Assembly: GCA_963847445.1 (NCBI GenBank)
Contig: CAWJZV010000030.1
Span: 512,001 to 576,000 of the forward strand
Direction of reading: 5' to 3'
DNA length: 64,000 bases
Source: an uncultured delta proteobacterium
GTDB lineage: Bacteria > Desulfobacterota > Binatia > UBA9968
The position numbers and the translations under genes were made by a program. Shown here piece by piece: positions 10,551-15,630 of this stretch (positions within the stretch are counted from its first letter, which is position 1; each line of letters starts with the position of its first letter). The notes beneath the pieces are model-generated. The model ran no database searches, was not told the origin of the DNA, and saw only the letters and a program-made list of their open reading frames with translations.

Positions 10551-10871
10551 GGTTCCAATAGTTCCAGTCGTTCCAAACGTTCCATCGCTGCGCTTCGTTC
10601 AAAACATTTAAAGATCGATCCGTTCAAATCGTTCAAGCCGTTCAACCGCTTCGCTCCGTTCAAAACGTTATCCGATTAAGATTAAGCTTCGTTCAAAGGT
10701 TCAAAGGTTCAAGGCATTTAAAGATCGGGCCGTTCCAATAGTTCCAATCGTTCCAAACGTTCCATCGCTTTGCTCCGTTCAAGTCGTTAACCGACAAGGA
10801 TTGTTCAAGGTTCAAGGCATTTAAAGATCGGGCGGTTCCAATAGTTCCAGTCGTTCCAGAGGTTCCAGCGG
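10551..10871 (+). repeat. GTTC(A/C)A-rich repeat block 1
   Basis: Units spaced 7-9 nt; contains core GGTTCAAGGCATTTAAAGATCGG at 10706 and 10809. Confidence 0.9.
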
Positions 10872-11008
10872 TTATCGTTTAAAAAGCCTGCCCCTGAGAT
10901 TGCCGAAGGGTTTAACCCATTACTTCGACGCGGTTCCCTGTGCTCGGGGCTGCGTTCCAGGCAAAACGTTAAATCCGAGCTAGCTCAGTGGCTCAGGGAG
11001 GATTTTAG

Positions 11009-11264
11009 TTATCGATAGACTTCTCGGCGGTGCCGAACCCGGAAAATTTTAACCTGTTTGCGCGCGTCATCGATTTCATAAACGACCCGATAGTCGCCGA
11101 TCCGTATTCGCCAGTCGTTCTTGGATCCGGCAAGTTTGTGACATCCAGTTGGCCGTGGATTATCGGCAAGCGCCTTAATGCGAGGCAGGATACGATCAAA
11201 GAGAGCGGTGGGTAGAGATTTGAGGTTCGCGCTCGGCGGTCCGTTCTATAAGAACGTCATACAC
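11009..11264 (-). CDS. RelE/ParE-family toxin (one frameshift near 11226; missed by ORF track)
   Basis: Manual translation VYDVLIERTAER/LKSLP...ALADNPRPTGCHKLAGSKNDWRIRIGDYRVVYEIDD...RVRHRREVYR*. Confidence 0.88.
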
Positions 11265-11463
11265 CAGCGGGGTCCTTTAAAAAGTCGTCGAGCTTGCGAA
11301 ACTTCAGCGGTTTTTTCCGCATGGCTTTGAGCGTTTTGAGGTCTTGGGCATCCTCGGCTTGTTCGAGCAGCTTGCGATACTCCTCGATGCCGAGGATGAC
11401 GGCGGTCGGCTTTCCTCCGCGCATCACGATCTCAGGATTTTTTCGCGTTCGTCGTGCTTTCAT
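11257..11463 (-). CDS. Phd/YefM-like antitoxin
   Basis: IVMRGGKPTAVILGIEEYRKLLE; overlaps the RelE start. Confidence 0.85.
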   Translation of the reverse strand: MKARRTRKNPEIVMRGGKPTAVILGIEEYRKLLEQAEDAQDLKTLKAMRKKPLKFRKLDDFLKDPAGV

Positions 11464-11563
11464 TGGAACTCACCTCGCTGGCCACCAAAGATTATCATTG
11501 GCCCCTTATCTCTGCAATTGACTCTACGACTAGAAAAATTTGCTCGGCACACCGCGCGACCCC

Positions 11564-11752
11564 GGTTCCAGATGTTCCAGGTCAGGTTTAAAGATCGGAC
11601 CGTTCAAGGGTTCCAGTCGTTCAAACGTTCAAGGTCAGAATGGGCTTCGTTCAAAACATGAACTGACTAGGACGCGTTCTAGGTTCAAGGTTCAAGGGTT
11701 AAACGATCAGGCCCGTTCCAATAGTTCCAGCCGTTCCAAAGGTTCCAGCGGT
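11564..11752 (+). repeat. GTTC(A/C)A-rich repeat block 2
   Basis: TTTAAAGATCGGACCGTTCAAG and CCGTTCCAATAGTTCCAG..GTTCCA shared with block 1. Confidence 0.88.
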
Positions 11753-11795
11753 TAATTTCCGCTGATGGTTAATTATTAATAGGTATTAAATCAAC

Positions 11796-12077
11796 TTAGG
11801 CGACGCGAGAGACTTTAATTTTGTCAGCGTATTTTTCTGCCTGGGCGAGGTCATAGGCCGCCTGGAGTCGGAGCCACGTTTCAGCGCCGCCACCGAAAGC
11901 TTTGTCGAGCCGGATCGCCATCTCTGGGGAGATCGCCGCTTTACCGTTGACCAGGTTGTTTAGCGCCTGCCTTGTGACGCCAAGGATTTTCGCTCCCTGG
12001 GTCACCGAAATACCCAGCGCCTCAAGGCAATCGCAGCGAACCGACAATCCAGGGTGCGGCGGATTTTTCATGGACAT
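11796..12077 (-). CDS. higA: HigA-family addiction module antitoxin
   Basis: MKNPPHPG...[26 protein letters not shown]...[10 protein letters not shown]. Confidence 0.93.
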
Positions 12078-12089
12078 GTATGTGCTCTC

Positions 12090-12272
12090 CTAATGATAGT
12101 CGACGAGATCTACGTCGTACGCATTGCCGTTACCGAAACGAAAGATGATGCGCCAATTGCCCGACACCGAGACCGCCCAGAAGCCCTTAAGACCGCCCTT
12201 GAGCGGATGCAGTCCAAAGGCGGGCAACGCCATGTGCTTGATATCCGTAGCCTCATCCAGCCGAGCCAGGAA
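12090..12272 (-). pseudogene. higB: HigB toxin, N-terminally truncated
   Basis: Manual translation LARLDEATDIKHMALPAFGLHPLKGGLKGFWAVSVSGNWRIIFRFGNGNAYDVDLVDYH*; 5' third replaced by the repeat core with an in-frame stop. Confidence 0.9.
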
Positions 12273-12410
12273 GGTTCAAGGCATTTAAAGATCGGCCCGT
12301 TCAAGGGTTCAACGTTCAAAAGTTCAAGGTCAGATTCGGAAGAATACCGTTCCAACCGTTCCACAGGTTCTAGCGATGACGCTGGTTCGTTCAATATTTC
12401 AAGGTCAGAC
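12273..12410 (+). repeat. GTTC(A/C)A-rich repeat block 3
   Basis: Begins with core GGTTCAAGGCATTTAAAGATCGGCCCGTTCAA. Confidence 0.9.
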
Positions 12411-12454
12411 TCGGGTGCGGACTCCTTCTTTTCCGGAATTCCTAAAACAAATGA

Positions 12455-13750: not shown

Positions 13751-13792
13751 ATACCAGCAGCGGATTAGAGAGATCGAGCGGCTAGTTGAAAG

Positions 13793-14203
13793 CTACCGGG
13801 CCGGTATGATCGCAAAGCGACCGAGCCTAGCAGGCCGATAAACCTGAAAATCGCGACGGTCGAGGGTAAAGATTCGCCGCAACCGCTCGCGCTCGGCAAC
13901 GCGAACCAAGGCACCGTCCGCCAGATCCATCGGCAAATCGCGGTACTTGTGCATCAATTCTCTAATGCGCGGGACGTCGTCGATTCCTAACGGCATGATT
14001 TCTATCGCGCCGCTCGCGATCATTTCCCAAAGCGCATCCTGGGCGCGCCAGGAAAAATTCAAAAGGTGGAGGGCTTCGGTGACTACGGGCCACACTGTGC
14101 CGAGCGGCTCGTCGAGCGCGGCAAAGGCGTCTCGACAACGCTCATGTTGATTGTCGTCTTGGTGTATGAGGGCGATCAGCGGCCCTGCGTCGACAAGGAT
14201 CAT
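13793..14203 (-). CDS. PIN-domain (VapC) toxin
   Basis: ILVDAGPLIAL...VVTEA...MDLADGALV..AER....IFTLDRRDF. Confidence 0.93.
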   Translation of the reverse strand: MILVDAGPLIALIHQDDNQHERCRDAFAALDEPLGTVWPVVTEALHLLNFSWRAQDALWEMIASGAIEIMPLGIDDVPRIRELMHKYRDLPMDLADGALVRVAERERLRRIFTLDRRDFQVYRPARLGRFAIIPAR

Positions 14204-14466
14204 CGACGCTTGCGGGCTCGCTCGACTAGCATTTCTCGAACCTTCTTGCTCGCATCTACGGAAAGATCCCGAGGTCCGCCTTTGACACAGCCAATCAGAT
14301 GAGCCACCAGATCATAAGGGCGCGTTTTCACGGCGCCCGTCTCTTCCTGTTTGGCGAGCACACCGATCGCGTCCCGGATGACTTCGGATTTGGTCTGTCG
14401 TCTCCTGCGAGCCAACCGTCCGATCAAGGACTCGGTCTTTTGATCTAAGCGAACGCTCAAAGGCAT
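14200..14466 (-). CDS. Ribbon-helix-helix (CopG-like) antitoxin
   Basis: LSVRLD....LARRRRQTKSEVIRDAI; GPRDLS tail; ATGA overlap with PIN gene. Confidence 0.88.
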   Translation of the reverse strand: MPLSVRLDQKTESLIGRLARRRRQTKSEVIRDAIGVLAKQEETGAVKTRPYDLVAHLIGCVKGGPRDLSVDASKKVREMLVERARKRR

Positions 14467-14482
14467 AAACGCGATTCCCCCA

Positions 14483-14504
14483 TGTAATACAGTAGTGTAC
14501 TACA
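14483..14504. promoter_or_regulatory. Putative RHH antitoxin operator
   Basis: Two palindromes TGTAATACA and TGTACTACA just upstream of the antitoxin start. Confidence 0.6.
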
Positions 14505-14527
14505 AACCAGCTCAAGACCTCAATACA

Positions 14528-14792
14528 GGTTCCGATAACCGTTCAAGCTTCAAGGGTTCAAAGGTTCAAGGCATTTAAAGATCGGCCCGTTCAAATCGCT
14601 CCAATCGTTCAACCGCTTCGCTACGTTCAAAACATTTTAAGATCGATCCGTTCAAATCGTTCAAGCCGTTCAACCGCTGCCCTTCGATTGCCCTCAGGGC
14701 CAGTGAGGATCTCGAACGGCGCTCCGTTCAAGACGTTATCCAATTAAGATTAAGCTTCGTTCAAGGTTCAAGGGTTCAAAAGTTCAAGGTCC
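14528..14792 (+). repeat. GTTC(A/C)A-rich repeat block 5
   Basis: Core at 14563; long near-copy of 10597-10704 interrupted by an insert of about 40 nt at 14681-14720. Confidence 0.9.
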
Positions 14793-14811
14793 GATACGGA
14801 ATGGATGCGGG

Positions 14812-15360
14812 TTATCGTTTGCCATAGCGCGCGGCGCGTTCCTCGACCAGAAAGCCGATCTTGCGCTTCTTGGGCTCCGGCGGTGTCATCAGTTGGCGGA
14901 TGGCGTCGAAGACGACCTTGAATTGCGCGTCATATTTTCGCTCAAGCATTTCGAGCTTGTTGGCCAGATCCTTGTGCGTTGCCAATATCTCCCGCAACCG
15001 AACGAACGCGCGCATGATTTCAATGTTCACGCTGACGGCTCGCTTGCTTCGTAGAACACTTGAAAGCATGGCCACGCCTTGTTCGGTAAATGCGTGGGGA
15101 AGGTACTTCCGATGTCGTCCCCGGCCGCTTTCTAAGGTAACAATTTGTGACCTTAAAGCCGTGAACTCTTCAGCAGTGAGTTGAAACATGAAGTCGGCGG
15201 GGAACCGGTCGTGATTTCGTTTGACGGCCTGGTTTAAAACTTTCGTCGACACTTGGTAGAGTTCTGCCAGATCGGCGTCCAGCATAACTTTATGGCCCCG
15301 GATAAGAAAGATCGACTTCTCGATCCGTTGCGGCGGAATGATTTGATCTTGTGGTGACAT
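14812..15360 (-). CDS. ORF6N (KilA-N-like) DNA-binding domain protein
   Basis: [37 protein letters not shown]...[18 protein letters not shown]...IGF. Confidence 0.93.
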
Positions 15361-15546
15361 AACAATGGCGAACCTTATGCGATCTGCCGGCGATAGGGCA
15401 AGAGCTTGCCGAACTCTCACCTGGCTGGCCCTTACAGCAACGCTAGAATTTCCGAGCTTAAGCTTCCGCGATCAATATGTAACCGTGCAACTGTCACCGG
15501 CACAATCATCATTCAACCCAAATTTTCGTCACTCTATTGCCGGGAA

Positions 15547-15630
15547 GGTGCAAGGGTTCAAAAGTTCAACGTCGGTTTCCAAAGGTGTCCAGCCGTTCGA
15601 CAAGGCCCGTTCACGGGTTCAAGGTCAGAT
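15547..15630 (+). repeat. Degenerate GTTC(A/C)A-rich repeat block 6
   Basis: GGGTTCAAAAGTTCAACG...GGCCCGTTCACGGGTTCAAGGTCAGATTCG, matching blocks 3 and 5. Confidence 0.75.

Follow-up and report, generated by a model that had tools for sequence, protein, structure and literature searches.

What kind of element is the one-way array of hexamer repeats and toxin-antitoxin genes at positions 10551 to 15630 of the DNA studied here? The whole stretch (the window) comprises 64,000 nucleotides of an uncultured delta proteobacterium and corresponds to G000:C30:512001-576000, where G000 is the genome under study, a metagenome assembly of 48 contigs and 7.19 Mb (91.8% complete, 6.9% contamination), and C30 is the contig. 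An earlier note on this DNA had proposed a repeat-guided platform, integron-like in layout, that captures or shuffles genes and stockpiles toxin-antitoxin modules. The explanation that we favor, and regard as moderately probable, is that a decaying toxin-antitoxin island was colonized by a genus-specific repeat resembling repetitive extragenic palindromic (REP) sequences and bacterial interspersed mosaic elements (BIMEs) and was reshuffled by repeat-mediated recombination. Positions 10551 to 15630 are the right part of a ~12-kb accessory island, and the spacers between its operons consist almost wholly of solo arms of this repeat.

Four GTTC(A/C)A hexamers, 7 to 9 bp apart, make up the arm that is the unit of the repeat; the arm is followed by a loop-like tail of ~25 to 30 nt. 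Positions 10551 to 15630 contain 83 copies of the motif GTTC[AC]A on the plus strand and a single copy on the minus strand (at 11464). In 500 mononucleotide shuffles of the same stretch, the mean was 2.5 (maximum, 9) on the plus strand and 2.2 (maximum, 8) on the minus strand; the remaining 58.9 kb of the window has 42 and 49 copies, respectively. Clusters of at least four motifs were found at 10552-10867, 11565-11747, 12274-12394, 13313-13446, 13624-13749, 14541-14673, and 14726-14787, every one of them on the plus strand, and the sixth block (~15546-15640) is weaker. Together with the open reading frames (ORFs), this motif map confirmed the layout given in the earlier note, in which six repeat blocks, their units facing essentially one way, are interleaved with five cargo units that all lie on the minus strand.

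Within each block, left arms follow one another, with the loop-like tail of one arm leading to the next left arm. Block 1 (10551-10880) has 23 same-strand hexamers in several arms and includes a ~103-bp tandem duplication (repeat D1, 10704-10770 versus 10807-10873) whose copies are 91% identical. Block 2 (11561-11753) has 13 motifs; block 3 (12272-12442), which begins within a former higB gene, has 8; block 4 (13310-13750), which carries small CCTGAG..CGAAGG hairpin inserts, has 17; and block 5 (14541-14800) has 14, all on the plus strand. The weak block 6, consisting of an arm and a loop-like palindrome, follows the second copy of a bracketing module (15513-15560), and the two together span 15513-15640 on the plus strand (repeats D16, D15, and I3). 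The first copy of this ~45-nt module lies on the minus strand at 10484-10545 and forms a direct repeat (D16) with 15513-15539 at 85% identity. Read on the minus strand, it resembles a sigma-70 site (TTGCCA-18-TAGAGT, 10531-10502), in a region not enriched in such sites relative to shuffles. A 17-mer of the module occurs four times in the genome, each time adjoining an arm block.

The long cores that the earlier note had seen shared between blocks were recovered as well. A 23-mer is exact at 10706, 10809, 12273, and 14563, with a C variant at 13369. The second core lies at 10634-10696 and 13618-13680 (95% identical) and again in block 5 at 14702-14764, where it is split by an insert of ~42 nt. 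Across the 7.19-Mb genome the 23-mer has five exact copies, four in the array and one at C24:2592. Both cores have three to six genomic copies, and nearly all of these lie in the array locus or in the array fragment with which C24 begins; the long cores are exclusive to arrays of this kind. The blocks themselves do not fold. A search for inverted repeats in 10400-15700 returned three weak 17-nt pairs, none within any block, and the predicted RNA folds of block 1 (z = -0.39) and block 5 (z = -0.21) were no better than those of shuffles. The array is thus made of solo, nonfolding arms. Rfam gave no match in window positions 9000 to 17000 at a permissive threshold. A role of the blocks as promoters or terminators was considered and rejected: promoter-like sites number 2 (2.9 in shuffles) and terminator-like sites 10 (7.4 in shuffles).

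The CCTGAG..CGAAGG motif is hairpin-like and has 70 matches in G000. It occurs as a ~24- to 42-nt insert within arms at places where the arm of the relative G003 is unbroken; its sites in the window are 10889-10920, 13410-13440, 13575-13622, 14680-14720, and 39035.

The cargo families, assigned by Pfam and NCBIfam profile searches, agree with those named in the earlier note (Phd, RelE/ParE, HigA, HigB, two PIN, RHH, and ORF6N); the integrity of the genes does not. All cargo genes lie on the minus strand. The leftmost unit combines a phd/yefM-type antitoxin gene (11257-11463; PF02604, 30.6 bits; TIGR01552) with a relE/parE-type toxin gene (11008-11262) that is a frameshifted pseudogene: tblastn with the intact 84-residue copy of the relative G004 placed residues 1 to 13 in one frame and 13 to 84 in another, with an in-frame stop. 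In the next unit, a complete higA antitoxin gene encoding a helix-turn-helix (HTH) protein (11796-12077; TIGR02607, 98.2 bits; PF01381) stands beside the 3' part of higB (12090-12271; C-terminal ORF fragment, 12090-12233), whose Pfam match spans profile positions 49 to 91 only. This toxin gene retains its last ~59 codons, and its first 33 codons and promoter are replaced by block 3. An intact 92-amino-acid (aa) HigB is encoded in G023 (L121 3437-3715), and its homology to G000 ends at window position 12271, exactly at the start of block 3. The third unit comprises a PIN-domain toxin gene (12455-12859; PF01850, 28.5 bits) and, upstream of it, a gene for a 96-aa protein (12863-13153) with no Pfam or NCBIfam match, whose product is presumed from its position to be the antitoxin. 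A VapC-type PIN-domain toxin gene (13793-14203; PF01850, 44 bits) and a ribbon-helix-helix (RHH) antitoxin gene (14200-14466; PF01402, 25.3 bits) form the fourth unit. The fifth, at the right end of the array, is a gene with an ORF6N domain (KilA-N-like, DNA binding; 14812-15420; PF10543, 120.8 bits), a family with three matches in G000, the second of which is truncated and lies at the right end of an array on contig C2.

Three of the units are therefore type II toxin-antitoxin operons by the families of both partners (Phd with the frameshifted RelE, HigA with the truncated HigB, and RHH with PIN), and the PIN gene with its 96-aa partner is one by position only. By coordinates, each cassette has 74 to 160 nt of upstream DNA of its own. 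The idea of a working stockpile of modules was not borne out: two of the five cargo units are broken, so decay fits better.

The array belongs to a larger insertion. The strain-specific island extends from 3393 to 15704, between a gene for an Rrf2-family regulator (2852-3352) and def (15730-16311), with all called genes on the minus strand and a GC content of 0.51 to 0.53, against 0.55 to 0.61 across the rest of the window. In G003, window positions 2-3392 are joined to 15705-16332 across 80 bp, and in G004 the Rrf2 flank is joined to def across 840 bp of different sequence; the island is therefore specific to G000 among these relatives. Its left part holds, by Pfam, a fragment of an HNH_2 gene, a Schlafen-group-3/DUF2075-type helicase gene in pieces, and a MazG-like gene. 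The HNH_2 endonuclease fragment and the helicase gene lie at 6499-10019, the latter in at least three ORFs (profile positions 17-120, 128-249, and 314-354), one of which also matches Peptidase_S24. Judged from their sequences, the genes of this left part look like decayed defense-type genes. Beyond the island, a ~130-nt repeat lies between def and an oligopeptidase gene (16577-16709); it has 17 other matches in G000 (80 to 92%), copies in relatives, and no Rfam match.

The repeat is not confined to the array. Genome-wide, G000 has 279 clusters of at least four motifs, in which 936 of 1,116 same-strand steps measure 7, 8, or 9 bp. These clusters resolve into 347 arms, 245 of them with exactly four units. 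We defined a pair as an arm with an inverted arm no more than 120 nt downstream; 65 such plus-then-minus pairs were found, and 217 arms are solo, with no partner detected. The pairs form hairpins of ~90 to 130 bp with complementary spacers and loops of 10 to 99 nt (20 to 39 nt in 36 of the 65), and a canonical pair at window 33024-33151 has a fold z of -3.7. The earlier note's cargo-free inverted pairs elsewhere in the window were found at 25109-25244 and 33039-33136, and solo minus-strand arms lie at 39022, 40536, and 42582. By crude gene calls, 217 of the 279 clusters fall outside long ORFs. Arms also stand between ordinary metabolic and binding-protein genes, for example, in a run of MetE-like and binding-protein genes on C26 (MetE named by reading the N-terminal sequence, with no family search) and among tandem genes for TctC/Bug-type binding proteins on C30. 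The triple-unit pattern is present in all 24 genomes of the genus, with 9 to 583 matches each against 0 to 3 for a reversed-pattern control (23 of 23 if the unpublished G005, which entered tallies only, is set aside); outside the genus, it was met once each in 2 of 16 genomes from other genera of the order. The repeat is therefore a genus-wide interspersed family, and the suggestion that it is a dedicated cassette boundary did not hold.

Fifteen elements of G000 were compared with G003. In this small sample, all 15 sites were located, 14 of them with motifs in both genomes, and no clean insertion with a target duplication, as would be expected of a miniature inverted-repeat transposable element (MITE), was found. 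At G000:C30:545039 (window 33039), a GTTCAA hairpin of G000 is matched at the same intergenic site of G003 by an unrelated tandem repeat of the AAATCCAAAATC type; it seems that some intergenic sites are filled over and over by one repeat or another. In frame at the 5' ends of TctC/Bug-type genes are four hairpin pairs (G000:C8:95420-95502 and, beyond the window, C30:586483-586571, 593721-593810, and 595986-596074). Their translations are N termini resembling signal peptides, in which the left arm is basic and the loop hydrophobic, followed by ..LNPLNLE.A.A-Q and PFYQGKT. In 17 of the 65 pairs, some open frame continues into a long ORF.

Arm orientation follows the replication strand. A first count gave agreement with local GC skew for 146 of 196 arms; among isolated solo arms of G000, 82 of 106 agreed, as did 103 of 131 neighborhoods. 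An orientation set by the neighboring genes was tried as an explanation and rejected. Where the flanking genes are codirectional, 56 arms point the same way and 44 the opposite way; 26 arms lie between convergent and 21 between divergent genes. No clear rule emerges from these counts, and the direction of genes therefore fails to account for the link to skew. All 12 arms of the array are on the plus strand, and the skew of the window is negative throughout, so that they point in the minority direction. The arrays of G004 and G003 agree with their local skew, and that of G014 does not. Under a rule obeyed by ~77% of arms, 12 independent insertions in the minority direction are very unlikely; the array must then have grown by copying its own blocks or have formed elsewhere and been moved or inverted. 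This argues that the array arose as a unit and came to its present site by relocation or inversion, and not through arm-by-arm insertion.

One-way arrays recur in four relatives (G004:C6, G014:C18, G003:C4, and G019:C13), the last of them with four one-way blocks and two cassette matches. The closest related loci are likewise from metagenome-assembled genomes. The arrays of G003 and G004 adjoin tsaE, a site that is free of arrays in G000, and that of G014 adjoins an lgt-like gene (named from its N-terminal sequence only, with no family search). The RHH-PIN cassette is shared with the arrays of G003, G004, and G014 at 90 to 94% DNA identity and has other neighbors there; Phd-RelE is shared at 90% in a different chromosomal context. 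Other cargo in relatives' arrays includes a DNA ligase gene, a zeta toxin gene, a TctC-like gene, and other small gene pairs (in G014, with no library scan), and some of the cargo in G014 and G004 faces the opposite way. The ATP-dependent DNA ligase gene is intact as array cargo at G000:C2:52681-54312 (543 aa) and is split into two ORFs in G004 (L011 9344-10920). Pieces homologous to the G004 array are dispersed in G000 on C2, C30, C24, C14, and C4. Between the conserved TctC-like and ligase genes, the inserts of G004 and G000:C2 differ, and the homology breakpoints (G004 L011 7773 and 9206, corresponding to G000:C2 51454 and 52545) lie inside arm blocks. The RHH-PIN cassette of G014 is 93% identical to that of G000, against 85% for the oligopeptidase gene, and the respective values for G003 are 90% and 95%; this lack of step hints at exchange between genomes.

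The junctions themselves are imprecise. Cassette ends shift by 0 to 70 nt between genomes: the 3' boundary of RHH-PIN is the same in G000 and G003 and ~70 nt farther out in G004 and G014, and its 5' boundary has two variants. A precise left end of block 3 common to G000 and G004 was considered and dropped, the G004 junction being a separate microhomology deletion inside an ORF6N cassette, which is the second ORF6N copy of that genome. HigBA in G023 and G007 and RHH-PIN in G023 lie in stretches of 7.0, 5.0, and 5.1 kb without arms. The cross-strain comparison called for in the earlier note thus went partly its way, in that content and neighborhood vary and the breakpoints fall in arms or within ~70 nt of them, and partly against it, in that the junctions are not precise.

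According to the model that we favor, arms would accumulate in dispensable intergenic DNA and be amplified on the spot, whether through tandem duplication, unequal crossing-over, or gene conversion; such amplification would preserve direct orientation and homogenize the cores. The direct repeats could then serve homologous and microhomology-mediated recombination, which would delete, swap, and relocate cassette-plus-spacer modules within and between genomes. Local amplification is suggested by the 91% identity of the 103-bp tandem copies and by the near confinement of the cores to the array locus and the start of C24. Decay and imprecision are indicated by the relE frameshift, the cut of higB at an arm junction, the 0- to 70-nt shifts of cassette ends, and the helicase gene in pieces.

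The closest known kind of repeat is the REP/BIME/REPIN type, such as the BIMEs of Escherichia coli and the REPINs of Pseudomonas. Like these, the present family consists of short, lineage-specific intergenic repeats in hundreds of copies that occur singly, as inverted hairpin doublets, and in mosaic clusters; its sites are kept between relatives as the sequences turn over (the 14 of 15 sites noted above), and its copies are possible recombination substrates. The high-copy intergenic hairpin doublets that mark the REP/REPIN-RAYT group are present here as the 65 pairs. According to PMC6006769, however, a REP is a short palindrome that carries the tetranucleotide GT[AG]G as a foot at its 5' end, whereas the present arm has four tandem hexamers, no internal palindrome or hairpin, and no such foot (GTAG/GTGG). 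Solo arms outnumber doublets here (217 versus 65), arm orientation tracks the replication strand, and no cognate single-copy RAYT was identified. The clusters are also unidirectional, whereas BIMEs alternate in orientation (PMC6006769).

The locus also resembles the toxin-antitoxin and defense islands found at variable hot spots, as a low-GC, strain-specific insertion between conserved genes that carries toxin-antitoxin pairs along with ORF6N, HNH, MazG-like, and Schlafen-type helicase genes, several of them decayed; it differs from them in spacers that form a structured, polarized mosaic of one repeat family with array-private cores. With sedentary chromosomal integrons and clusters of attC sites lacking integrases (CALINs), for example, the Vibrio superintegron with its toxin-antitoxin cassettes, it shares small, same-facing cassettes, many of them toxin-antitoxin pairs, each with a 3' repeat, and a content that differs between close relatives. 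Unlike those, it has no integron integrase (IntI), its repeats neither fold nor stay within arrays, its junctions are imprecise, and each cassette has its own upstream DNA.

Several observations weigh against the decaying-island explanation. Only half of the palindrome is present, and nothing in this explanation accounts for the lack of any minus-strand arm across 5 kb. All five cargo units face the same way, with an arm and loop tail just beyond each 3' end, and the same holds at the 3' ends of the cassettes shared with G003 and G004; this regularity resembles the gene-plus-attC cassettes of integrons and is not predicted by random accumulation. No mobilizing enzyme was identified for the arms. 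On the technical side, arms were called from exact hexamers, so degenerate partners of solo arms elsewhere in the genome may escape; gene calls were crude longest-ORF calls; and the order of cassettes inside repeat-rich DNA is that given by a metagenome assembly. The half-palindromes, the loop-plus-arm at the 3' end of each cassette, and the strand-biased spread of the arms are what keep the bolder capture hypothesis alive, at a low probability.

Under that hypothesis, the locus would be a dedicated cassette-capture platform, integron-like in function, whose mobile unit is a gene or operon plus a 3' half-palindrome (the loop and four hexamers). Integration, excision, and reshuffling of units at the arms would be the work of a putative recombinase, either site-specific or acting on single strands, and would preserve arm polarity and cargo orientation. 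We consider this unlikely. Its best arguments are the 83-to-1 motif count with all five cargo units on the opposite strand, the arm-plus-loop that adjoins the 3' flank of cassettes in G000, G003, and G004, the sharing of cassettes among different arrays and loci with breakpoints in the arms, the recurrence of arrays in at least five genomes of the genus, and the RHH-PIN identities that do not track those of the oligopeptidase gene. One-facing cassettes, five of five on the minus strand, with content and neighborhood that vary in G003, G004, and G014, are also what an integron or CALIN would present, and the CALIN class needs no IntI. The machinery is lacking, however. As the earlier note had anticipated, there is no integron integrase (the best TIGR02249 score in G000, which is 91.8% complete, was 102 bits against a cutoff of 265), and no attC-like structure was seen in the blocks, which have neither inverted repeats nor a fold (a test of structure only, with no attC covariance model). 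The nearest tyrosine recombinase (PF00589, C30:375273-375785) is ~147 kb away, and no recombinase linked to the arrays was identified. Assignment to the integron/CALIN family was rejected on these grounds. The junctions, moreover, vary by 0 to 70 nt, and one of them cuts away 33 codons of higB; the same operons occur arm-free in G023 and G007; housekeeping operons often contain arms, which may point either way with respect to the genes; and part of the cargo of G014 and G004 faces the other way. A further pair in the window was inserted without arms, namely, a PIN_3 toxin gene and its family-less upstream partner on the plus strand at 21385-22067 (free of GTTCMA arms). It lies within 21016-22320 and is flanked on both sides by a 230-bp direct repeat (copies 93% identical) of the 5' end of an amidohydrolase gene. 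The segment is single-copy in G004, and on this sequence evidence the pair is probably an arm-free toxin-antitoxin insertion with a long target duplication. What survives of the capture or shuffling platform is the layout, the variability, and the breakpoints at repeats; dedicated machinery, precise sites, and exclusivity are not there. A limited full-text literature search returned papers on integrons and REPINs and nothing on arrays like this one. A small chance likewise attaches to the stronger claim that the half-palindromes are the recombination sites of an integrase-free cassette system, with capture in one orientation and on one strand; the enzyme could be of the HUH/Y1 type or another genus-specific one, acting perhaps at replication forks. 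If true, a half-site system would do the job of integrons in this soil lineage and would also have seeded the hundreds of genomic arms and hairpins.

Somewhat less unlikely, though still doubtful, is that a Y1 (HUH) transposase of the TnpA-REP/TIRYT kind, with a C-terminal DnaA-C-like HTH domain, mobilizes the arms on single-stranded DNA at the fork. Arrays would then grow beside the gene by local hopping, and the window array would be a fragment moved from such a cluster. A gene of this kind lies at G000:C2 49258-50181 (PF01797), and its G004 homologue (L011 399-1310) is 56% identical. In G000 (C2), G004 (C6), and G019 (C13), the Y1+HTH gene stands between a minus-arm array and a plus-arm array; these flanked genes are ~55 to 70% identical to one another, and those of G000 and G004 are oppositely oriented. 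This setting, the cassettes that the window shares with the G004 array beside such a gene, and the match of isolated arms to GC skew (82 of 106) speak for the transposase, and strand-specific insertion is documented for IS200/IS605 elements in the passages that treat them in Quentin et al. 2018 (PMC6006769). The same source states, where it describes the domain, that DnaA-C binds 9-bp repeats, and the commonest arm unit measures 9 bp, a link that we infer. The C terminus of the G004 homologue, however, matches Bac_DnaA_C below the cutoff (22.4 against 31.5 bits). Of the 16 outgroup genomes, 14 encode the Y1+HTH family and yet lack the repeat, and a search at E ≤ 1e-10 detected no member in 5 of the 24 genus genomes that have the repeat, including G006 (99% complete, 148 pattern matches). 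Six of 14 further copies in relatives had no arm cluster in the fetched stretch, where ~0.4 of random 10-kb spans would be expected to hold one (an estimate from arm density). Single arms also lack a hairpin of the kind recognized by Y1 enzymes. Located 65 nt upstream of the G000 gene is a TIRYT-type GGGGTCAG motif, with an imperfect inverse downstream, which suggests that the gene possesses its own ends and that these have nothing to do with the arms. With their PF01797 domain and weak Bac_DnaA_C-like end and, in G000, the upstream GGGGTCAG, the G000:C2 and G004 genes resemble subclass 2.1 (TIRYT/TnpA-REP), to which Y1 proteins with a Bac_DnaA_C-type domain belong; in the account of this subclass in PMC6006769, no REP-like sequences are reported near the genes, and the terminal inverted repeats described, GGGG[AT][CG]A[CG], bear no relation to the GTTC(A/C)A arms. 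The case against this mobilizer is stronger than the case for it.

We also considered that the one-way array is a repeat-induced misjoin, or a collapsed order, in a metagenome-assembled genome. The fragmentation of G000 into 48 contigs with 6.9% contamination, and the position of other array fragments at contig ends (the starts of C24 and C14), which shows that the repeats do break assembly, would favor such an artifact. The array, however, is enclosed in a contig of 630 kb, and ~300 kb on each side of it are collinear with a relative; arrays of the same kind occur in the independent assemblies G003, G004, G014, and G019. In four other public runs, contigs match the cassettes at 90 to 99% identity and continue from cassettes into arms. 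These Logan contigs, obtained at 90% likeness from four runs of four studies, are mostly shorter than 800 nt; their joints go from repeat to repeat with short sides of 20 to 63 nt, compatible with rearrangements or with other organisms' arms, and the best share of the stretch's words in any public run was 0.34. An artifact is accordingly very improbable.

If the decaying-island explanation is true, this locus is a clear case of a lineage-specific REP-like repeat that colonizes a toxin-antitoxin island and supplies the seams for the loss, exchange, and movement of modules between chromosomal sites in closely related uncultured soil bacteria. Such a case would shed light on the turnover of accessory islands and on the poor assembly of such genomes. 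Three features make the family unusual: its arms have four tandem hexamers, most of its copies are half-palindromes, and its orientation follows the replication strand. This last property makes the mechanism of spread testable, setting single-strand or fork-associated processes against the breakage of hairpins. Should the arms be true recombination sites, they would represent a second, integrase-independent route to cassette arrays.

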